Below, piece after piece: positions 8,281 through 64,000 of a stretch of DNA of 64,000 bases (its first letter is position 1; every line of letters begins with the position of its first letter). The position numbers were made by a program, and so were the translations under genes. The notes beneath the pieces are model-generated. The model saw nothing but the letters and a program-made list of their open reading frames with translations, did not search any database and was not told the DNA's origin. Source of the stretch: Vicinamibacterales bacterium (GTDB taxonomy: Bacteria; Acidobacteriota; Vicinamibacteria; Vicinamibacterales; UBA8438); contig CBDAMZ010000008.1 of NCBI GenBank assembly GCA_965197375.1, forward strand, positions 143,394-207,393, written 5' to 3'.

Positions 8281-9111
8281 ATGGTCATTTGTAAATCGCC
8301 GGCCGAGCTTCGGCGGATGCGCGCCTCGAACGCGCTTGTGGCTCAGGTCCTGAACGAGTTGCTGGACATGATCGAGCCTGGGATCACCACGCGCGAACTG
8401 GATGCAGTGGCCGAAACGCGTGTGCGGCAAGAGGGAGCGGTGCCGGCATTCAAAGGGTACCAGGGATACCCGGCAACGTTGTGTGCGTCAGTTAATAACG
8501 CGGTCGTTCACGGTATCCCGTCGGAACGCCCATTGGTCGAGGGCGATATTGTGTCACTTGATATGGGCGTTGTGCTTGAGGGGTTCTACGGCGATTCGGC
8601 GTTGACTGTTGGCGTCGGGACGATCTCCGAGAGTGCGGCGAAGTTGCTGGGTGTGACCCAGGAGGCCCTGGCTCGGTCCATCGCGCGGGCTCGTCTTGGG
8701 TCGCGCGTATCAGACCTCGGGCATGCGATTCAGCAGCACGTCGAGTCGAATGGCTTCTCGGTCGTTCGAGAATTCGTTGGCCACGGAATTGGGAGAAGCC
8801 TTCACGAAGAACCGCAGGTCCCGAACTACGGCGAGCCAGGGCACGGGCCACGCCTAGCCGAAGGCATGGTGCTTGCCATCGAGCCGATGGTGAATATTGG
8901 AAAACCGGCTGTACGAGTGCTGGATGACGGGTGGACAGCGGTCACCCGTGACGGCAGTCTGTCGGCGCACTTCGAACACACGGTCGCCGTGACGAAGAAC
9001 GGTCCGGTGGTGCTGAGCATGCCGCTGACGAGAACGAGCAGCCCAGGTCAAGCTCAGCCAGACGCTCCGTACTCCGTTTCGGCCGACTACTCTATGGAGA
9101 GAGAACTATGA
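8281..9111 (+). CDS. map: Type I methionine aminopeptidase (with ~25-aa C-terminal extension)
   Basis: 276 aa; ...VVHGIP..., [46 protein letters not shown] metal-ligand motifs. Confidence 0.95.
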
Positions 9112-10190: not shown

Positions 10191-10820
10191 ATGGCACGCT
10201 ATGTCGGTCCGGTCTGCCGGTTGTGCCGGCGGGAAGGCATGAAGCTTTTCCTCAAGGGGGAGCGCTGCTATGGCGAGAAATGTGCTATCGATCGGCGCAA
10301 TGTGCCTCCAGGGCAGCATGGGAAGGGGAGGAAGGCTAGGCTCATCGGGTATGGTCTGCAACTGCGCGAGAAGCAGCGAGTGAAACGGATGTACGGTGTG
10401 CTGGAGCGCCAGTTCAGGCGCTACTACGAAGAAGCCGACCGGCGGAAGGGTATCACCGGCGAGACGTTGTTGCAGCTGCTGGAGCGACGCTTAGACAACA
10501 TCGTCTACCGGCTCGGCTTCGCGACCTCGCGACCGCAGGCGCGGCAGCTGGTGCGTCACGGCCACTTCTTGGTCAACGGTAAGCGAGCTGACATCCCGTC
10601 GTATTCGCTGCGCACCGGTGACCAGGTCAGCGTCAGGGCGACCAGCGCAAAGAATCCTGCCATCCAGTATGCGATGGAGGAGGTTAAGGGCCGCGGCGTT
10701 CCAGAATGGCTGGACTTGGACGGTGAGAACCAAGCGGGGCGGCTGTCGGCACTGCCGACCCGTGAGCAGTTGAATCTCCCGGTACAAGAGCAACTGATTG
10801 TCGAGCTGTATTCGAAATAG
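10191..10820 (+). CDS. rpsD: 30S ribosomal protein S4
   Basis: 209 aa; [26 protein letters not shown]..., S4 domain [12 protein letters not shown]. Confidence 0.96.
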
Positions 10821-19568: not shown

Positions 19569-20723
19569 GTGCCTCGACGACTTCGGTGCGTTGCCGCAAT
19601 CATGAGATGGCCCACTAAGCGCCTATATCGAGTAGCGGATTGCCGCGCGAAGTCAGAAACGTTTCATTGCTTCGCACGATTCCGCATCGGTTCACGCTTT
19701 GACTTTCCGCATCGGCTCATCATTCCATTCGTCGTCGCGGTCGTTCTGACGACCGCCCGGGAAGCGCCGGCACAGATTTTCGAGTCGGTCGGGACGCGCG
19801 CCATGGGCATGGCGGGCGCCTTTGTCGCTGTTGCCGACGACGCGACGGCTGTTTACTGGAATCCAGCTGGCCTAGCTACCGGTGCCTTCCTGAGCTTAAT
19901 CGTCGATCGCCAGATCACCAAGAGCTGGCTCGACCGGAGGAGGGTCGCTGCGCCGGCAACGGACGATACCAGCGTGTTTGTTGGCTTATCGATGAACACG
20001 ACGGGTTTTGCGTATTACCGCCTGCGTACCAATCAGGTGACTGGATCCCTCCTTCCTGGAGCCGCGCCCGCTACCGCCGGAGGAAATCAAGGAGGTGAAA
20101 CGATTCTGAGGTCTCTGATTACTCACCATGTCGCTGTGACCCGAACCTCGATAATCTTCCCAGGGATAAGTCTGGGGACGACGCTCAGATACATTCGCGT
20201 CTCGGCGGCATCTGCTCCGGGGGGGCCGGCTCTAGCGGCGGACGAATTATTGGGCCAGGCCGATGATCTGGAACGATGGGGCAAACATGAGTACGACCTG
20301 GACATCGGCCTTATGGTCGGGTCACCGACGGTTCGGGTCGGGGTCGTGGCTCGGAACCTACGAGGACCGTCCTTTAGCGTTCCGAACGGGGGCAGTTTAC
20401 GTCTAGACCGGCAGATCCGGGCCGGGGTGGCCATGCGGTCGTTCGGCGGACTGTTGGTGGCCGCTGATATTGACCTAACCCGCGTCCCGACCGTGAGTGG
20501 GCACCGTCGCAGCCTGGCGGTTGGTGGCGAGCACTGGTTCGGCCAGCGGCTCGGCGTGCGCGGCGGATCGCGCCTCAACCTCGAGGCCAACGCCCCCCAG
20601 CCTGTTGGAGCCTTTGGGTTCAGCGTGGCCCTCTCATCGGGCGCCTATCTTGACGGCCAGGTGACCCGAGGCCGTGACGCCCTTGAACAAGGCTGGAGCA
20701 TTGCCGGCCGGTTCGGGTTCTAA
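19569..20723 (+). CDS. Outer-membrane beta-barrel protein (TraF_2/PorV-like N-terminal motif); start uncertain
   Basis: Signal-like LIIPFVVAVVLTTAREAPAQ; GTRAMGMAGAFVAVADDATAVYWNPAGLA motif; alternating beta-strand pattern; C-terminal ...IAGRFGF with terminal Phe typical of OMPs. Confidence 0.7.
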   Translation: MPRRLRCVAAIMRWPTKRLYRVADCRAKSETFHCFARFRIGSRFDFPHRLIIPFVVAVVLTTAREAPAQIFESVGTRAMGMAGAFVAVADDATAVYWNPAGLATGAFLSLIVDRQITKSWLDRRRVAAPATDDTSVFVGLSMNTTGFAYYRLRTNQVTGSLLPGAAPATAGGNQGGETILRSLITHHVAVTRTSIIFPGISLGTTLRYIRVSAASAPGGPALAADELLGQADDLERWGKHEYDLDIGLMVGSPTVRVGVVARNLRGPSFSVPNGGSLRLDRQIRAGVAMRSFGGLLVAADIDLTRVPTVSGHRRSLAVGGEHWFGQRLGVRGGSRLNLEANAPQPVGAFGFSVALSSGAYLDGQVTRGRDALEQGWSIAGRFGF

Positions 20724-20945
20724 GTGGTCCCGTTTGTAATTACACACGTAACGAGATTTTCCCTGAGCGAAGCCGCGTCCGGTCCTGACACGGTACGAGA
20801 CGAGAGAATGCCGAGAGTATTCGAACCCTGCTCGAAGACCAGCGCCGCCTTCAGCGGGATGCAGAGGCGGCCGCATGCCACCGTGGTTATGAACGGGGCT
20901 ACCAAGCGGGCGCATTGGAGTCAGGGTGCGAATCCGCTGGGCGCC
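20724..20945 (+). repeat. Intergenic repeat element, copy A (homologous to 38850-39063 on the opposite strand)
   Basis: Starts at the base after the OMP stop codon. Shares with copy B: GTGGTCCCGTT (11/11), CTGAGCGAAGCCGCGTC (17/17, 20763-20779), GAGAGAAT, GAGTATTCGAACCC (20815-20828). Weaker similarity continues for another ~100 nt. Confidence 0.6.
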
Positions 20946-21115
20946 AGTTCCTCGAGTAGCGTCTGGTGTCTCGGTGCTGCTAACTGAAGCCGGGGTGGCG
21001 CGTGTCCGCCCCCGGAAGCAGAGCACTCGCTTCGCCAACCGCTTGACGCGTCTTCCGGAAGCCTTTACAAGAGTGTAAGCGAGCCCCCTCGTATGGTTCG
21101 CCGGCGGGCACTCAG

Positions 21116-22351
21116 GTGGGGAAGGGAGGCAGCATGAGCAGCCGGGTTTGGCACTGGATGGTGATATTCGCGCTAGGCGGCTTGGTGGCGGCCGGTGTCT
21201 CAACTTACGTGCATCTCCAACTCTTGCAGGATCCGACCTATACGACTTTCTGTGACGTCAGCGACAGCGTCAGTTGTGCCGAGGTCTACCTCAGCCGGTT
21301 CGGGAGCGTCCGCGGGGTACCCGTTGCGCTCGGTGGCGTCCTCTGGTTTCTGGGGGTTTTACTTTTGGCCTTCGCGAGTGCCCGCGCGCCGGCGGAATCC
21401 CAGCCGGGTGTGGCTGGCTACCTGCTCGCCTGGTCCACCGGCGGGCTCGCCGTCGCGGTGTACATGGCCTACGCCTCGTTTGTCGTGCTTCAGACCTTCT
21501 GCCTGCTTTGTGGTGTGGTGTACGTGGCGGTCATCGGAATTTTCATCTTGTCGGGCACGGGGCCCTTTGTGGCAATGGCCAGGCTGCCGTCGGCCGTGAT
21601 CGGTGACATCGCTTGCCTCGTCCGTAGTCCGGTCGGTCTGGGGTTGACGATTGCCTTTGTTGCAGGCGCCACTGCGGCGGTGGTCTGGTTTCCAACGCAG
21701 GCAACCGGCACCGCCATGCCGACCACCGAGTCCGTGGCGATCGAGACGGCTGATGAACGGAGCGCGTTCGACCGCTTCTGGGAGGAGCAGCCAAGGATCA
21801 ACCTCGCGATTCCCCGAGGTGACGAGGCGGTGCTCGTCGTCAAGTTCAACGACTACCAATGTCCTGCCTGCGCTGACTCGTTTCGCAGGTACAAGCCGAT
21901 CTTCGCCAAGTATGCGTCGAGCCACCCAGGTGCGGTTCGGCTCGTGACACTCGACTATCCGCTTGACCCGGAATGCAACGAGGAGTCGCCGAACGGGCCC
22001 CACGACGCAGCCTGCGAGGCGGCCGTTGCGGCCAGGTTGGCGAAGAAAATTGGTGGGGTCGAGGGAGAGCGCATGGCGCGGTGGCTGTACGCGAACCAAG
22101 AGACGATGTCTCGTGAGACCATCGCCTCGGCTGCGCGTAACATCGCCGGTATTGATGCGGATGCGTTCGATGGGCAGTACGACGCGACGGTCGCACGGGT
22201 GAAGGCCGACATTGCCCTGGGCGCCAGTGTGCCGGTGGAGGCCACCCCGACGTTCGTTATCAACGGCGTGACCATCAAGGGCCGCCTCGCCCCGCAGTAC
22301 TTCGACCGAGCGATCGCCTCCGAGCTGGAGCGAGCTGAAGGATCGTCATGA
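21116..22351 (+). CDS. Vitamin K epoxide reductase (VKOR) domain fused to a DsbA-like thioredoxin domain
   Basis: 411 aa; N-terminal 4-5 TM region with CDVSDSVSC and FCLLC redox cysteines; C-terminal FNDYQCPACADSF thioredoxin-fold CxxC. Confidence 0.85.
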   Translation: MGKGGSMSSRVWHWMVIFALGGLVAAGVSTYVHLQLLQDPTYTTFCDVSDSVSCAEVYLSRFGSVRGVPVALGGVLWFLGVLLLAFASARAPAESQPGVAGYLLAWSTGGLAVAVYMAYASFVVLQTFCLLCGVVYVAVIGIFILSGTGPFVAMARLPSAVIGDIACLVRSPVGLGLTIAFVAGATAAVVWFPTQATGTAMPTTESVAIETADERSAFDRFWEEQPRINLAIPRGDEAVLVVKFNDYQCPACADSFRRYKPIFAKYASSHPGAVRLVTLDYPLDPECNEESPNGPHDAACEAAVAARLAKKIGGVEGERMARWLYANQETMSRETIASAARNIAGIDADAFDGQYDATVARVKADIALGASVPVEATPTFVINGVTIKGRLAPQYFDRAIASELERAEGSS

Positions 22352-38849: not shown

Positions 38850-39063
38850 CCTTGTCTTCGGTCAGGTCCGGGGGGCCTGGTGCCGCCGTTCGTAATTACG
38901 GCGGCACTCGACCGCCGATGCGTCTCTCACTGAGGGCGGCACCGGACTCTCAGAAGCGGGTTCGAATACTCCAGGTATTCTCTCACCTTGTACCCTGTTA
39001 GGGCCAGACGCGGCTTCGCTCAGCGGAACCTTGGTGCGTGGCCGTCATAACGAACGGGACCAC
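38850..39063 (-). repeat. Intergenic repeat element, copy B (homologous to 20724-20945)
   Basis: Fills the whole 214-nt gap between the DHH phosphoesterase stop and the truB start. On the minus strand it begins GTGGTCCCGTT right after the stop codon. Core CTGAGCGAAGCCGCGTC is at 39023-39007 and GAGTATTCGAACCC at 38971-38958. Also contains a perfect 8-bp hairpin GTGCCGCC/GGCGGCAC (about 38880-38907). Confidence 0.6.
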
Positions 39064-40074
39064 TCAGTCTTGCTGTGAGCGACCGCCGCGCTGGCCAAGA
39101 CTAACGTTTATCGCCGCGACAACCTCGGCCAGCACACGGCGTTCGATCTCGTCTCGAGTCCCGGAGAGAGAGAACCCAGAGGCGTTCCGATGGCCACCGC
39201 CCGCGAACGTGGCGGCCACTGCTCGTACGTCGATGGAGCCCTTCGAGCGAAGACTGACGCGGGTGACGTTGCGGAAGGCCTTTAGGAGGATGGCCACTTC
39301 GACGTCCCGCGCCGCCAGCGGCAGGTTGACCAGGCCCTCCATATCGTCGTCCGCGCAGCCGGTCGCGCGGAGGATGTGGTCATCGACGTACAACACGGCG
39401 ATGCGGCCGCCACTCTGAAATTGCATCGACTCGAGCATCACGCCGGTGAGTTTGAGCTTGCCGACGCTGCTGTGTTGATACACCTGAGCGGCGAGGCTTG
39501 CGGTGTCTACGCCGCTGGCGGCGATTTGTCGGCAGATGTCGAAAGTTCGAGCCGTGATGTTGCCATGGCCAAATGACCCGGTGTCGGTTAGGACTCCGAC
39601 ATACAGATTGATGCCTATCGCGCGCGTCAGCGTTCCCCCGAGTCCGGTAATGACGTCGAATACCATCTCGGTGCAGGCGGCTGCCGATTCGTCGAACCAG
39701 TTGATTGCGCCGTACATTGAGTTACCGGCGTGATGGTCGATGTTAATCACGAAGTATTGGTCGAGCCCTCTCACCTCCGTCCGGCTTAGTGAGTTGCACT
39801 CCAACACGACTGCGGCGTCGTACGGTCCGGTGACCGTGTCGGCGGCCTCGATCACTGAAATTCCAGGCAGCCAGGTCAGAAAAGAGGGTGCCTGGTCATG
39901 GTTGACGATGCGAACTGTTTTGCCCAGATCGGTGAGCGCTTGCGCGAGGGCAAGCTGTGAGCCGATCGAATCGCCGTCTGGTCGTGCATGTGAAGACAGA
40001 ACGAAACGATTGCGGTGCTGGATCGCCCCCAGGATCTGATCGAGCGGTGACTTAGGTGTCACGAGGGCCCTCAT
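39064..40074 (-). CDS. DHH-family phosphoesterase (NrnA-like oligoribonuclease / pAp phosphatase)
   Basis: From ATG 40074: MRALVTPKSPLDQILGAIQHRNRFVLSSHARPDGDSIGS..., NIDHHAGN, ...GGGHRNASGF (DHH, DHHA1 GGGH motifs). The upstream part of the 425-aa ORF overlaps rbfA and is judged spurious. Confidence 0.8.
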   Translation of the reverse strand: MRALVTPKSPLDQILGAIQHRNRFVLSSHARPDGDSIGSQLALAQALTDLGKTVRIVNHDQAPSFLTWLPGISVIEAADTVTGPYDAAVVLECNSLSRTEVRGLDQYFVINIDHHAGNSMYGAINWFDESAAACTEMVFDVITGLGGTLTRAIGINLYVGVLTDTGSFGHGNITARTFDICRQIAASGVDTASLAAQVYQHSSVGKLKLTGVMLESMQFQSGGRIAVLYVDDHILRATGCADDDMEGLVNLPLAARDVEVAILLKAFRNVTRVSLRSKGSIDVRAVAATFAGGGHRNASGFSLSGTRDEIERRVLAEVVAAINVSLGQRGGRSQQD

Positions 40075-43521: not shown

Positions 43522-45138
43522 TCAGCCCTTTGCTAAGGTATCGTTCGTTGGCTTTGGCGGGGTTTCGCTTGCCTTCGGTCCGGCGGCGACCTCGGCTGCT
43601 TCGGCGGCCGCCCGCGCGACTGCGTCAACCTGCTCTCGTACGGTCGCCTGCAGTTGTTCTGCCGTCGCCTCATCGACGCCAGCCACCTTAGCGAGGTTGG
43701 CCGCCGTCGTCGCAAGTAGGCTGTCGGCGGTGTCGAGACCCGCATCGCCCAGCTGACGCAGCTGCTGCTCGTCAAGTCCGGGTAATGTCAACGCTGTTGT
43801 TTGCTGCGGCTTGGTTTCGCCTATCTCCGCCGGTCCGGTAGCGGCTTCGGCCGCTTCGGCGGCCGCCCGTGCGACCGCGTCGACCTGCTCCCGGACGGCT
43901 TCCCGCAGTTTTTCTGCCATCGCCTCATCGACACCGGCCACCTCAGCGAGGTTAGCTGCCGTCGTTTCGAGCAGGCTATCGGCGGTGTCGAGACCTGCGT
44001 CCCCTAGCTGACGTAGTTGCTGCGCGTCAAGCCCTGGCAGTGTTAGCGTTGCCGCTTCTTCGGTGGCACCCAACCCATCGAACTTAGCCTCAATTTCGCG
44101 ACGCTTTTCCTCCTCGCTCTTGATATCGATCTTCCAGCCTGTCAGCTTCGCGGCGAGACGGACGTTTTGGCCCTTCGTGCCGATGGCCAGCGAGAGTTGC
44201 CTATCCTCGACGACGACTTCGATAACCCTCGCGACGTCGTCGACGATCGTCACACTTTGCACCCTTGCTGGGCTGATACCGTTTGTGACGAAAACAAGTG
44301 GATCATCGGACCACTCGACGATATCGATTTTCTCCCCGCGCAGTTCCCGGATGATCGCTTGCACGCGCGTACCCTTTATCCCGACGCACGCACCAACCGG
44401 ATCGACGTCGCGCTCGCGCGAGTGGACAGCCACTTTGGCGCGATCGCCAGCTTCTCGCACGGCGCCCCGGATCGAGACCGTCCCGTCGTAGATTTCCGGC
44501 ACTTCCTGCTCGAATAATTTGATCAACAAGACCGGGTCGGTTCGTGAAAGGATGATCTGCGGTCCTTTGGTGTTCTTATTGACCTCTCGGATGACAACGC
44601 GGATACGGTCCCCAGGGTTGTAATTCTCGGCGCGCGACTGCTCGCGCCGGGGCAGCAGCGCCTCGACGCGGCCTGCCTCCACGACAATATCGCCGTTCTC
44701 GAAGCGCTTTACCGTGCCGCCGATGACTTCGCCCAGCCGATCGCTGTACTCGGCGTACACGTTCTCGCGCTCAGCCTCGCGAACCTTCTGGAAGATGACC
44801 TGCTTGGCCGTTTGCGCCGCGATGCGCCCGAGCACTTCGGTCGACTTCGGAAATTCGACTTCCATGTCAACTTCCGCTTCGTCGCCATACAGCTCTTTCG
44901 CATCCGGGAGGGAGATTTCGGTGGCCGCGTCTTGCACCTCGTCGACGATTTGGCGGACGGTGTACAGCTCAACCTGTCCCGTTTCCTGATTAAACTTCGT
45001 GCGCAGATTCTCGCTCGATTTGTAGTAGTTACGGGAGGCGGTGAGCACGGCATCTTCGATGGCCGCGATGATTATATCCGGCTCGATGCCCTTCTCCTTG
45101 GCCAGCGCCACGATCGTTTGCTGCACCGGATTGTTCAT
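43522..45138 (-). CDS. nusA: Transcription termination/antitermination factor NusA with duplicated C-terminal HhH (AR-like) modules
   Basis: 538 aa; N-terminal domain, S1, KH1/KH2 (ACVGIKGTRVQAIIRELRGEKIDIV; LAIGTKGQNVRLAAKLTGWKIDI), then two 85-aa repeats. Confidence 0.95.
   Translation of the reverse strand: MNNPVQQTIVALAKEKGIEPDIIIAAIEDAVLTASRNYYKSSENLRTKFNQETGQVELYTVRQIVDEVQDAATEISLPDAKELYGDEAEVDMEVEFPKSTEVLGRIAAQTAKQVIFQKVREAERENVYAEYSDRLGEVIGGTVKRFENGDIVVEAGRVEALLPRREQSRAENYNPGDRIRVVIREVNKNTKGPQIILSRTDPVLLIKLFEQEVPEIYDGTVSIRGAVREAGDRAKVAVHSRERDVDPVGACVGIKGTRVQAIIRELRGEKIDIVEWSDDPLVFVTNGISPARVQSVTIVDDVARVIEVVVEDRQLSLAIGTKGQNVRLAAKLTGWKIDIKSEEEKRREIEAKFDGLGATEEAATLTLPGLDAQQLRQLGDAGLDTADSLLETTAANLAEVAGVDEAMAEKLREAVREQVDAVARAAAEAAEAATGPAEIGETKPQQTTALTLPGLDEQQLRQLGDAGLDTADSLLATTAANLAKVAGVDEATAEQLQATVREQVDAVARAAAEAAEVAAGPKASETPPKPTNDTLAKG
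43576..44046. repeat. Tandem 255-nt (85-codon) duplication inside the 3' end of nusA
   Basis: Units 43576-43791 and 43831-44046 separated by a 39-nt linker; 'cttcggcggccgcccg' recurs at 43599 and 43854 (period 255). Protein units LTLPGLD(A/E)QQLRQLGDAGLDTADSLL.TTAANLA.VAGVDEA.AE.L...VREQVDAVARAAAEAAE.A.GP are nearly identical. Confidence 0.85.
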
Positions 45139-45149
45139 GCTCTACTTTA

Positions 45150-45674
45150 CTAAAATTCCACTTCTAACCTAGCCCGCCTGACGACCGACCACGGGATCCG
45201 ATGCAAGCGCCGATGGGCCCTGAGTACCACCCACCCGCTGCCGGTTTCGACTTCTTCGACCCCGACGACACGGCCAACCAGATGGTGTTGGCCGTTCACC
45301 GCCTCGGAGGTAACGAAACTGGCGAGCCGGCCCTGAAAGCGCTGGCAATCACCAAGGTGCCGTAGCGGGCGATCCAGTCCTGGAGACGAGATCTCCAACG
45401 TATACGCATGGTCCAATGTGACTTCGGCGTCGAGCACGGCGCTGAGGTCCTTGCTTACCCGCTGACAGTCCGTGACGCTGATGACCTCGCCGTTCTGGGC
45501 ATGATCGGCGTCACCAGGTGGTCGATCGATGACGACCCGAAGGATCCACCCGATCGACTCCCTCCGGAACTGAACGTCGAAGATCTCGAGCCCGCAGTCC
45601 CGCACGACGCAACCGGCAATCGACCGGAGCTGACCTAGCGAACTACCGACGGCGGGGCGATCGTCCTGACCCAC
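45150..45674 (-). CDS. rimP: Ribosome maturation factor RimP (start uncertain)
   Basis: ...LGQLRSIAGCVVRDCGLEIFDVQFRRESIGWILRVVIDRP...ISVTDCQRVSKDLSAVLD...YTLEISSPGLDRPL. GTG 45674 chosen because a terminator at 45701-45732 lies inside the longer 213-aa ORF. Confidence 0.7.
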   Translation of the reverse strand: MGQDDRPAVGSSLGQLRSIAGCVVRDCGLEIFDVQFRRESIGWILRVVIDRPPGDADHAQNGEVISVTDCQRVSKDLSAVLDAEVTLDHAYTLEISSPGLDRPLRHLGDCQRFQGRLASFVTSEAVNGQHHLVGRVVGVEEVETGSGWVVLRAHRRLHRIPWSVVRRARLEVEF

Positions 45675-45700
45675 GGCGCACCACGGTCGCTCAGCACCCT

Positions 45701-45732
45701 GAAAAACAAAAAGTGGGCAAACGCCCACTTTT
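45701..45732 (-). terminator. Rho-independent terminator downstream of asnS
   Basis: Minus strand reads aaaaGTGGGCgtttGCCCACttttTGTTTTTC: a GC-rich stem, 4-nt loop and T-tract, about 115 nt after the asnS stop. Confidence 0.7.
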
Positions 45733-45847
45733 ACGCAACTCGGCGTCAACGTACCAGCGCCACTATAGCACGATGGAAATGAGCACGGCAACGCAGCTGC
45801 GCCCTATTACTTCCCCTGTGACGGGGCATGGCGCGCCCGGTACGGTC

Positions 45848-53944: not shown

Positions 53945-54243
53945 ATGCCGGTCAAGTTCTTCGGTCACACGGCGGATGTTGGCGCGCACCTCGTTGCTCC
54001 GACGTTTGAGGCACCGTTCGTCGAGGCTGCGACAGCGCTCACTGAAACCCTTTGCGATCCCTGCGGAATCGAGCCACGGTTGTCGCGAGCCGTGACCGTT
54101 CACGCCCCCGATGTCGATCAGCTTCTGGTCGAGTGGCTGAGCGAGCCAATAAGGATGTGGCTGAGGTGGTGCGCGTTGTGCACGAAGCTGGGATCAGCAC
54201 GCGCGTCGCCCAGCCCCGACCGGTCGCGGTCATCAAAGACTAA
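53945..54243 (+). pseudogene. Archease-like gene, frameshifted and internally shortened
   Basis: N-terminus MPVKFFGHTADVGAHL...DVDQLLVEWLSE matches the archease pattern (F.HTAD.G...LL.DWL.E). The C-terminal part ...AEVVRVVHEAGISTRVAQPRPVAVIKD* is in another frame. Total ~100 codons versus the ~140 expected. Confidence 0.45.
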
Positions 54244-54424
54244 GCGAGGACTCTCACAAATGCAGTAGCATGCGGCCGCCGATACATCCCGCCAAGGGCC
54301 CTGGACCTTCTCGTTAGCTGGTCAAATAACCCCGGCACTCTTTCTCCTCGTGCCGTGCAACGGCCGGACGCACCTCCGCCTAGTGGGTCCCCACACCGCG
54401 TCGAGGACGCGATTCGATAGAGAG

Positions 54425-54997
54425 CTACCGTGCTGCGGGCTCGGTCCCGGGCGCTGCTTCCCCGTCTTCAGGTTCGGGGTCCTCAATTTCGTCAAGCAGC
54501 GTTGCTTCAATGTCACCGTTCTGGTGGCTGAACTCGTAGTTGCTTCGGTCCATCGCCGGGTTCCGAGGCACGCGTAACTCGACATTGATCACCTGACCGG
54601 GGAGAAACGGTTCGCGAAGGCGGAACCGGTCACCGGTCACCGTATTGCCATCACGGTCGAACCAAAACTCGTCTACCTGGAACCCCGCGATGGCGTTCTC
54701 GGCGAGGTTTCTGACCCGGATCTCGGTGACGATGAAATTCCGTTCCCGCCGAGCCGCCGGCTGTGTATAGCCGATTTCGGCTAGGCCGCGAACGGTCGGG
54801 ACCAACTTAAGATCGCTTCCGAGCCTGCTCGCTAAACGACTCGCGACGGTCGCGGCCGCGGCGTCGGCCGCGGCGTCGGCCGCAGCCGCTTCCGCGGCTG
54901 CAGCATCGTCCTCGACGGGCTCAGAGCCGCCACAGGCGGTGGTCACGAGAATACAGGCCAGGAAACCGAAACGTAGCGCGCAGCTCAGGCGTGTCAT
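54425..54997 (-). CDS. Hypothetical lipoprotein
   Basis: From ATG 54997: MTRLSCALRFGFLACILVTTAC|GG (lipobox-like), Ala/Asp-rich linker, ~120-aa globular part, acidic tail. No family recognised. Confidence 0.55.
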   Translation of the reverse strand: MTRLSCALRFGFLACILVTTACGGSEPVEDDAAAAEAAAADAAADAAAATVASRLASRLGSDLKLVPTVRGLAEIGYTQPAARRERNFIVTEIRVRNLAENAIAGFQVDEFWFDRDGNTVTGDRFRLREPFLPGQVINVELRVPRNPAMDRSNYEFSHQNGDIEATLLDEIEDPEPEDGEAAPGTEPAAR

Positions 54998-63191: not shown

Positions 63192-63457
63192 GTCTGTTAG
63201 AGGTTCAGTCGATTGCGGCGGGAGCGCTGCAGGCACTCATCGTGTCAACGGCATTCCTGCTGGCGCTTTTTCTGGGGTTCATTGTGCTCGTTGGTTTCTC
63301 AAAGTTTCGTCGCGCTGGCCGCAACAAGCTCGTCGTGCGCGACCTCGCCGAGCGTATGGGGAGTGCTTTTTCGTACCTTCCACCGGATGCCCCGCGTGGT
63401 CCCGCCGATCAGCTCAAGACCCCTGAACTTTTGGAGCAGGCCGGTCATAAAGAATAG
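63188..63457 (+). CDS. Hypothetical small single-pass membrane protein
   Basis: GTG start overlapping the rpoZ stop (GTGA); 89 aa with one hydrophobic helix ALQALIVSTAFLLALFLGFIVLVGF followed by KFRRAGR. No family recognised. Confidence 0.45.
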   Translation: MSLLEVQSIAAGALQALIVSTAFLLALFLGFIVLVGFSKFRRAGRNKLVVRDLAERMGSAFSYLPPDAPRGPADQLKTPELLEQAGHKE

Positions 63458-63602
63458 CGAGCCTTGCCCCCAAGGCGGCGCTGGACTTCTCAGCGGATAG
63501 GTCACAGACTTCCGGCATTCTCCTTCCTCGCGCTTTGCAGTGGACGGACGCAACTTAACTCAGCGGGCCGTCGGTGTATCACCGTATTCACGAGAGGCAG
63601 CG

Positions 63603-64000
63603 CTAAACGACGACGTTGGGTGGCCGCTCCCGCCACCAGGGGACCTCGTGCTCGAACGCATCTCCCAGGCGGAGCAGTGTCGTCTCGTCGAACGGTCGTC
63701 CCGTGAGCTGGATCCCGATCGGCAGACGAGCTTTCGTGAATCCCCCGGGAAGACTTATGGCCGGCAGTCCAGTCAGGTTGGCGCTGACGGTAAAAACATC
63801 GCCGAGATACATCGCAAGTGGGTCATTTGTCCGCTCGCCGAGGCGAAACGCTGGTGTGGGGGTCGTCGGCATCGCCAGGGCATCGACCCTCGCGTCGCGG
63901 AACGCGGCATCGTAGTCTTGACGGATGAGACTTCGCACGCGCTGCGCTTTTGCATAATAAGCATCGTAATACCCGGCGCTGAGTGCGTAGGTGCCAAGCA
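63603..64000 (-). CDS. gatA: Asp-tRNA(Asn)/Glu-tRNA(Gln) amidotransferase subunit A, C-terminal part (5' end outside window)
   Basis: The frame is open to the window edge: [33 protein letters not shown]...[17 protein letters not shown]...[28 protein letters not shown]...[13 protein letters not shown], the amidase/GatA C-terminal signature. Confidence 0.88.

Follow-up and report, generated by a model that had tools for sequence, protein, structure and literature searches.

The intergenic sequence that follows the gene for a TraF_2-like outer-membrane protein in this Vicinamibacterales genome is probably (roughly 0.8 by our estimate) a copy of a non-coding foldback MITE of about 160–190 bp that is moved in trans by a putative transposase. 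In the stretch of 64,000 nt that we analysed (hereafter the window) and in related contigs, we found the features of such an element: terminal inverted repeats (TIRs), a target-site duplication, a small non-coding size and dispersed, polymorphic copies. The element thus constitutes a new MITE family of a known kind and is ordinary selfish DNA. The initial annotation of the window had listed a decayed MITE among several explanations, to be recognised by its TIRs and target-site duplications; we found TIRs of 22–24 nt and perfect TTA/TTA duplications at three copies (E, K and M). Throughout, the copies of the window are called A to E and those from other contigs F to K and M.

The similarity on which the initial annotation was based is far beyond chance. 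Alignment of the sequence that runs from position 20724 onward on the plus strand (copy A) with the nrnA-truB spacer read downward from 39063 on the minus strand (copy B) gave ~76–80% identity over ~180 nt. As had been reported, the 17-mer CTGAGCGAAGCCGCGTC and the 14-mer GAGTATTCGAACCC each have two exact occurrences in the window, with a 52-nt spacing in both copies, and the two copies begin right after stop codons (TAA|GTGG in A and TGA|GTGG in B). By contrast, the size first proposed, ~215 nt, has to be reduced to 179–184 nt, as homology stops at 20902 in copy A and at 38880 in copy B, and the count of two copies has to be raised to five. A third copy was first hinted at by a repeat scan, a 38-nt degenerate pattern of the core matched four sites in the window (copies A to D) versus none in 100 shuffles, and an HMM made from copies A, B and C retrieved two further copies (E = 4e-10 and 8e-6), giving the total of five. 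A tRNA and tmRNA scan of the window found none of these genes.

Copy A (20724–20902, plus strand, 179 nt; nhmmer E = 1e-41) is old and decayed, with a 5′ TIR at 20724–20745 (GTGGTCCCGTTTGTAATTACAC) and a 3′ TIR at 20881–20902 (CCGTGGTTATGAACGGGGCTAC). The TAA stop codon of the outer-membrane protein gene (20721–20723, plus strand) is read as the 5′ copy of its target-site duplication, and the CAA at 20903–20905 (plus strand), which matches TAA at two of three bases, as the degenerate 3′ copy, by analogy with the copies that remain intact. Copy B (38880–39063, minus strand, 184 nt; 5′ TIR at 39063–39042 and 3′ TIR at 38901–38880) is located between nrnA, identified by its DHH/DHHA1 Pfam domains, and truB, within the gene cluster nusA-infB-DUF503-rbfA-nrnA-truB-rpsO-pnp. 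The TGA stop of nrnA (39064–39066, minus strand) is read as the putative 5′ duplicate, which the 3′ flank CAG (38879–38877) no longer matches. Copy C (54244–54428, minus strand, 185 nt) lies between two convergent stop codons: its first bases, GTAG, donate a TAG stop (54427–54425) to a 197-aa lipoprotein-like ORF, and its 3′ end adjoins a TAA (54241–54243, plus strand), the stop of the second frame in a frameshifted archease gene. Copy D (63434–63603, minus strand, ~170 nt, with an approximate 3′ end) carries an internal deletion and went from E = 4e-10 to 4e-33 with a model of nine copies; it begins with the G of an amidase gene's TAG stop, and the Pfam match of that gene extends to the end of the profile. 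Copy E (19615–19454, minus strand) occupies the PvlArgDC-OMP spacer and is flanked by TTA at both 19618–19616 and 19453–19451.

Copies range from 160 to 190 nt, and the well-preserved ones are foldbacks of ~160 nt. In the younger copies the two TIRs, 22–24 nt long, match at 21/24 to 22/23 positions (22/23 in F, ~22/24 in K and 21/24 in I, GCGCTGCCTTTCATAATTACGGTG); those of M and J are also near-perfect, and those of A, B, E and H are degraded and still recognisable. The TIR sequence is GTGCTGCCTTTCATAAATACGG in the young subfamily and GTGGTCCCGTTYGTWATKAC in copies A and B. The element termini read GTRG...CYAC, with GTAG in C, H, F and the 3′ end of A and with GTGG or GTGC elsewhere; overall they are of GTRG or GYGC type, and GTAG proper accounts for no more than roughly one third of them. 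Copy M, the nearest to the consensus, forms one almost perfect hairpin of 161 nt (z = −11.2 folded as RNA and −8.3 as DNA), and this folding of a whole copy into a single hairpin identifies the element as a foldback. The apex of this hairpin, GAAUAC-N5-GUAUUU, is the small hairpin that the initial annotation had spotted. In copy A, where the MFE fold contains a 20-bp terminal stem, the apical hairpin (GAAUGC-N5-GUAUUC, ~20806–20822, plus strand) is likewise the apex of the whole-element foldback; it had been described as imperfect, and its sequence does differ, but it still pairs by means of a G-U.

Perfect 3-bp direct repeats (TTA|...|TTA) flank copies E, K and M, and a relic in locus L032 (see below) is flanked by TAG...TAG. 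Partial repeats with two of three bases matching border A (TAA/CAA), H (TAA/TGA) and I (CAA/TAA). Copy J shows a duplication only if its boundary is shifted by 1 nt (CTA/CTA) or if a 2-bp TA is read, and copy F, with near-perfect TIRs, has no recognisable 3-bp duplication (TAG vs GTG). The right flanks are non-random, being TNA-like in most copies; moreover, the left triplet is usually preceded by C and the right one usually followed by G, so that the target looks like C-TNA-G. Copy M interrupts an ORF at CGC-TTA-GTC, and excision of the copy together with one TTA restores a continuous ORF that has a weak Abhydrolase_6 match across the junction and up to the profile end (E = 0.01, below the Pfam cutoff). 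A TA duplication of the IS630 type was also considered and rejected, as it fits J and F only.

We examined the adjacency to stop codons in 12 independent insertions. One end of A, B, D, F, G, H and J lies 0–1 nt from, or overlaps, the stop codon of a flanking ORF, and in C both ends do so. Six of the eight insertions that abut stops share the orientation of the upstream gene, a weak bias that a MITE does not predict, and F and J are reversed. Since these two abut stops in the reverse orientation, the adjacency is a property of the element ends and not of a function of the sense strand. None of the three youngest copies (I, K and M) sits at an intact stop, M being inside a gene and K altering a gene end. 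For A and B, the preceding stop codon (TAA and TGA, respectively) is most plausibly taken as the 5′ half of the target-site duplication, in which case the elements start at stop codons because insertion duplicates a TNA target, rather than by translational coupling.

These patterns suggest a simple mechanism. A transposase would recognise the 22–24-bp TIRs and insert the element at C-TNA-G, with duplication of the central triplet. Where the triplet happened to be a stop codon (TAA or TGA), its 5′ duplicate would still end the upstream gene, making the insertion harmless and likely to persist, which would explain why the old copies A, B and H start right after a stop. Insertions elsewhere would disrupt genes, as copy M does, and would presumably be purged; stop-codon sites would in this way be enriched by a selection filter. 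Once inserted, copies would decay neutrally, and they probably would be passively co-transcribed as 3′-UTR hairpins. Two other ideas were rejected: a SECIS-type or other recoding element, as copies are found at each of the three stop codons and some of them lie in reverse orientation, and a module resembling the bridge RNA of IS110, as past the triplet the flanks show no relationship to one another and a recombinase is absent.

The distribution of the element outside the window is that of a mobile sequence. The window itself has matches among ENA contigs from long-read metagenomes. Copies F, G, H, I, J, K and M are found at unrelated loci in other Acidobacteria contigs, which belong to at least five other contig sets; the named homologs and one pattern match are labelled “Acidobacteria bacterium”. 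We reached orthologous loci through protein homologs. The nrnA-truB spacer measures 214 nt with copy B in the source genome and 218 nt with an orthologous copy (B33) in L033, whose NrnA is 87% identical; in the 73% relative L032 it measures 90 nt and retains only a 22-nt relic of the 5′ arm straight after a TAA, and in the 70% relative L034 it measures 52 nt, in which we saw no trace of the element. The infB-DUF503 spacer contains a full copy (H) straight after the infB TAA in L035/L036, a relic of 58 nt in L032 (the one with TAG..TAG flanks) and nothing recognisable as the element in the source genome. The PvlArgDC-OMP spacer is ~270 nt long with copy E in the source and 0 nt in L041, where the two genes abut; L041 holds another copy (J) plus a degenerate one. 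Such a mixture of filled, relic and element-free orthologous sites is the pattern expected for a mobile element.

Searches of public data enlarged the family by two routes. The exact core pattern had one true match (copy F, in L018) among about a dozen chance matches in GTDB species genomes, and two true ones (copy F again, in L020, and copy G, in L029), likewise with about a dozen chance matches, in JGI metagenomes; either the pattern demands too exact a match or these collections contain few members of the lineage. A search for spurious ORFs translated from the element yielded copies I, K and M. An exhaustive search with a profile of this translation collected 59 clusters of public predicted “proteins”, a few of which are unrelated repeat proteins (we discarded P0248 and P0258 as such, their matches being multiple stretches in long proteins), and a word-indexed search gave one match. 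Comparison of a young copy with plasmids by blastn produced chance matches only, and a scan of viral contigs for the TIRs found none.

Neither a transposase gene nor a pair of such TIRs separated by 0.8–2 kb was detected in the window and in ~0.45 Mb of related loci. Longer proteins carrying the motif are not transposases: three are a methyltransferase, a glycosyltransferase and a phosphoesterase with extended ORFs, and the other seven have no Pfam match. Within the IS5 family, the IS1031 group has a preference for TNA targets and makes 3-bp repeats (PMC12016507), and canonical Harbinger elements also make 3-bp duplications (PMC12730594). Judging from the TNA/TWA duplication alone, the transposase would thus be of IS5 (IS1031-group) or PIF/Harbinger-like type. 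MITEs derived from IS5-family (IS1031-group) insertion sequences and the “Tourist-like” MITEs of PIF/Harbinger resemble our element in being short, non-coding and multicopy, in their TIRs of ~20 nt, in the 3-bp TNA/TWA duplication (TTA or TAA) within a palindromic C-TNA-G, and in their insertion polymorphism between relatives. Several differences can be pointed out: here the duplication is the one pointer to the superfamily, the whole element and not just its ends is a foldback, the TIRs were matched to no described insertion sequence, and the hosts are uncultured Acidobacteria.

Other bacterial MITEs of 100–170 bp that adjoin coding regions are the Correia elements (NEMIS) of Neisseria and the ERIC and YPAL elements of enterobacteria. 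These families duplicate TA, not TNA. Their sequences are unrelated to that of the present element, and their effects on mRNA processing have been shown experimentally. Elements of this type are co-transcribed and fold into long RNA hairpins (summarised in PMC3733652), and by analogy the same passive behaviour as 3′-UTR hairpins may be expected here.

An unlikely alternative is that the element is a functional structured RNA, such as a 3′-UTR stabiliser, an RNase III site or an sRNA, whose sense placement after stop codons has been selected, mobility being either the means of its spread or a property of old copies later co-opted. The initial annotation had put a structured 3′-UTR or sRNA family first among its explanations, and some observations agree with it. 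Copy B is part of a conserved gene cluster and plausibly transcribed, and insertions at stop codons have the orientation bias described above. In the terminal stem of copy A, each of the six transition mismatches is a G-U when read on the sense strand; summed over copies, the terminal-stem mismatches lean slightly towards G-U on that strand (roughly 23 vs 14), which is not significant. Compensatory change in the internal helices exceeds that in column shuffles (83% paired vs 78%, with 0–8 of 500 shuffles reaching the observed values), and no shuffle had as many compensatory types, numbers to be read with the reservation that the structure was derived from the same sequences, that the helices are segments of the foldback and that relatedness inflates such figures. 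Finally, the core (alignment columns 62–115) is more conserved than the arms among independent paralogous copies, with a mean pairwise identity of 0.67 vs 0.45.

Against a host function, the orthologous copies behave as nearly neutral sequence. B and B33 share 78.8% identity, their differences comprising 32 transitions and 5 transversions, and the four-fold degenerate sites of the neighbouring genes are, between the source and L033, 78.1% (nrnA), 78.0% (truB) and 87.1% (rbfA) identical; copy B thus diverges at the synonymous rate of its flanking genes, and its core evolves no more slowly (76% identical) than its arms (76–83%). Stability of the fold falls with age: young copies have sense-strand MFE z-scores of about −4 to −11 (F −5.1, I −7.7, J −4.4), and those of old copies lie between about +0.3 and −2.2 (A −2.2, B −1.4, C −1.1, E +0.3, H −1.1), mostly with similar values on the antisense strand. 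RNAalifold returned a weak consensus (−8.5 kcal/mol; covariation term, +0.12), and consensus scans of both spacers found no promoter-like or terminator-like site. Rfam searches identified no family in the whole window at gathering thresholds, Acido-1 and Acido-Lenti-1 included, only two chance-level matches (E 5–8), both outside the element, with permissive thresholds over 20650–21150, and nothing at E ≤ 1 in the loci of copies M and B33. Moreover, copies have been lost or reduced to relics in close relatives. Taken with the divergence of B and B33 and the decay of the fold on both strands, these results lead us away from the structured-RNA family first envisaged.

A variant confines function to the core. 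Here, ~110 nt would form an RNA or DNA module (a hairpin that is cut by RNase III or blocks exonucleases, or a protein-binding site) spread by the MITE to numerous gene 3′ ends in an uncultured acidobacterial clade, and the host would have retained old sense copies abutting stop codons because it makes use of them. This proposal, which we hold to be about as improbable as the preceding one, derives from the conservation of the core among paralogs and from the excess of compensatory change, which neutral decay does not fully explain. Under the MITE reading, something constrains the propagating lineage beyond its TIRs, and misalignment of the arms, together with the foldback origin, may explain part of the contrast; we attribute the difference between core and arms to this constraint and to arm misalignment, an account that does not fully explain it.

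Marginally less probable than either is an element of the REP/REPIN kind, with inverted GTAG-tagged palindromes around a spacer that move as single-stranded DNA by means of a RAYT/TIRYT transposase (Y1, IS200/IS605-like) and without target duplication. GTAG REPs can donate a TAG stop to a neighbouring ORF (PMC3733652), and the behaviour described by Di Nocera et al. matches copies C, D and J; the same authors reported from Acidobacteria a separate group of Y1 transposases associated with TIRs, which also speaks for such an origin. GTAG-tagged REP/REPINs share with our element the GTAG-like ends that donate TAG, the placement 3′ of genes and the inverted hairpin-forming units; the termini fit GTRG...CYAC, each arm of copy B can fold alone, and copy F lacks an evident target-site duplication. 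However, REPs are units of 20–40 nt associated with Y1 transposases and make no target duplication, whereas here 3-bp direct repeats occur, perfect at three well-defined copies (E, K and M), the conserved interior spans ~120 nt and the consensus terminus is GTG, not GTAG. The TNA-like bias of the right flanks is not predicted by Y1 transposition, and the called genes of all the loci fetched include no Y1_Tnp (PF01797-type) protein. The related idea that the TIRs are the halves of a pre-existing REP hairpin that had been targeted was discarded, as sites with one arm show no intact palindrome.

A translationally coupled mini-ORF or leader peptide starting at the GTG after the stop, at which the initial annotation had hinted on the basis of that GTG in A and B and of the four mismatches between them in the first 21 nt (correctly placed at positions 12, 15, 18 and 21, all third codon positions), is effectively refuted: although one frame is open through A, C and I with similar peptides, in-frame stops break it in B, D, F and H, several copies have stops in every frame, the start varies among copies (C, D, G, I and F begin otherwise), variability has no 3-nt periodicity, and the peptide similarity is that of translated conserved DNA, which appears fused to many unrelated public proteins as N- or C-terminal extensions.

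The recognition of the element as a MITE bears above all on annotation. An HMM, a TIR consensus and a TNA duplication now describe a repeat that litters the intergenic DNA of a poorly studied acidobacterial lineage, and dozens of public predicted “proteins”, as well as spurious N- and C-terminal extensions, are translations of it. The case also illustrates that a transposon duplicating TNA can hide in TAA and TGA stop codons and mimic a stop-linked start without any translational function. Copies occasionally donate stops or truncate genes (C, D, J, K and M) and are thereby a minor source of variation in gene 3′ ends. The practical value lies in annotating acidobacterial metagenome assemblies; the element opens no new biological question.

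The rest of the gap after copy A, which the initial annotation had left unexplained, is unrelated to the element. The sequence at 20903–21133 consists of ordinary spacer and a conserved region upstream of the VKOR-DsbA gene, with the part outside the element and its presumed 3′ duplicate running from 20906 to 21133 (plus strand). Folding of 20903–21133 gave nothing unusual (z = +0.60), and this segment contains no inverted repeat, no strict promoter or terminator match and no significant Rfam match. Its last ~90 nt (~21044–21133) can be aligned to the sequence preceding the VKOR-DsbA gene of L041, whose product is 67% identical; the conserved region comprises TTGACG-N17-TACAAG followed by a GGAGG ribosome-binding site, and the VKOR-DsbA gene itself is called from the ATG at 21134 (P0122, 405 aa).

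A profile built from translations of the element, a foldback MITE of ~160-190 nt with 22-24-nt terminal inverted repeats (TIRs), matched 59 predicted-protein clusters (50% identity) in public protein collections (P0121, P0247-P0304). Some of the true matches are small spurious ORFs; the others extend real enzymes at the N or C terminus, among them a methyltransferase, a PLP decarboxylase and a glycosyltransferase. Such element translations are annotation contamination by the repeat. The few matches rejected as element translations include P0248 and P0258, which are unrelated repeat proteins. One of the matched proteins, P0247, is the translation of two tandem element copies, and a second, solitary 5' TIR (beginning GTGCTGCCTTTCATA) lies beyond the 3' TTA of the young copy K, at 10792-10816 of its locus (L044). 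These two cases therefore indicate that the element sometimes inserts beside or into copies of itself that are already in place.

Reduced forms of the element also occur in relatives of the source genome. In the relative with a 73%-identical NrnA, several relics consist of the 5' arm alone, including two occurrences of GTGGTCCCGTTCGYAATTRCG in L032 (4890-4911 and 10946-10967, identity at 20 of 22 positions). A shorter 5'-arm relic, GGGTCCCG, directly follows the TAA stop codon of the gene for the TraF_2-like outer-membrane protein (OMP) in a relative's locus, L041, at about 8326-8340. Conservation of these 5'-arm-only relics is higher than that of the remainder of the element. Downstream of OMP in L041 lies a near-consensus sigma-70 promoter sequence (TTGACA-N16/17-TAGAAT, 8347-8421), followed by an MshEN-domain gene and then a 164-aa ORF, neither of which has a counterpart between OMP and VKOR-DsbA in the source window.

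Copy C of the element (54428-54244, minus strand) adjoins an apparently frameshifted archease gene (53945-54268, plus strand; Pfam Archease). Its N-terminal half occupies one frame, covering positions 3-68 of the 136 of the Pfam model, and a second frame (54052-54243) runs on to a TAA adjoining copy C. The apparent frameshift means that the gene is a pseudogene or else that the assembly, a long-read one at 5-8x, contains an indel error here. In a fetched contig (L002, 5331-7937), infB is called as two genes of 711 and 145 aa, and in the near-identical L001 and L003 as a single gene of 867 aa. The split is probably an assembly indel, and it calls for caution over frameshifts in such low-coverage contigs.

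The gene caller probably overlooked rimP. At 45150-45791 (minus strand), where the relative's locus L032 has rimP, lies an ORF of 213 aa that starts with TTG and, judged by this position, is the putative rimP; in the ENA annotation of the source contigs this place has only two small ORFs, on the opposite strand. The 3' part of nusA (43522-45138, minus strand) contains two 221-nt units in tandem, 255 nt apart and 82% identical (43576-44051), which may represent a duplicated C-terminal repeat domain. For such a domain duplication, this nucleotide identity would be high.
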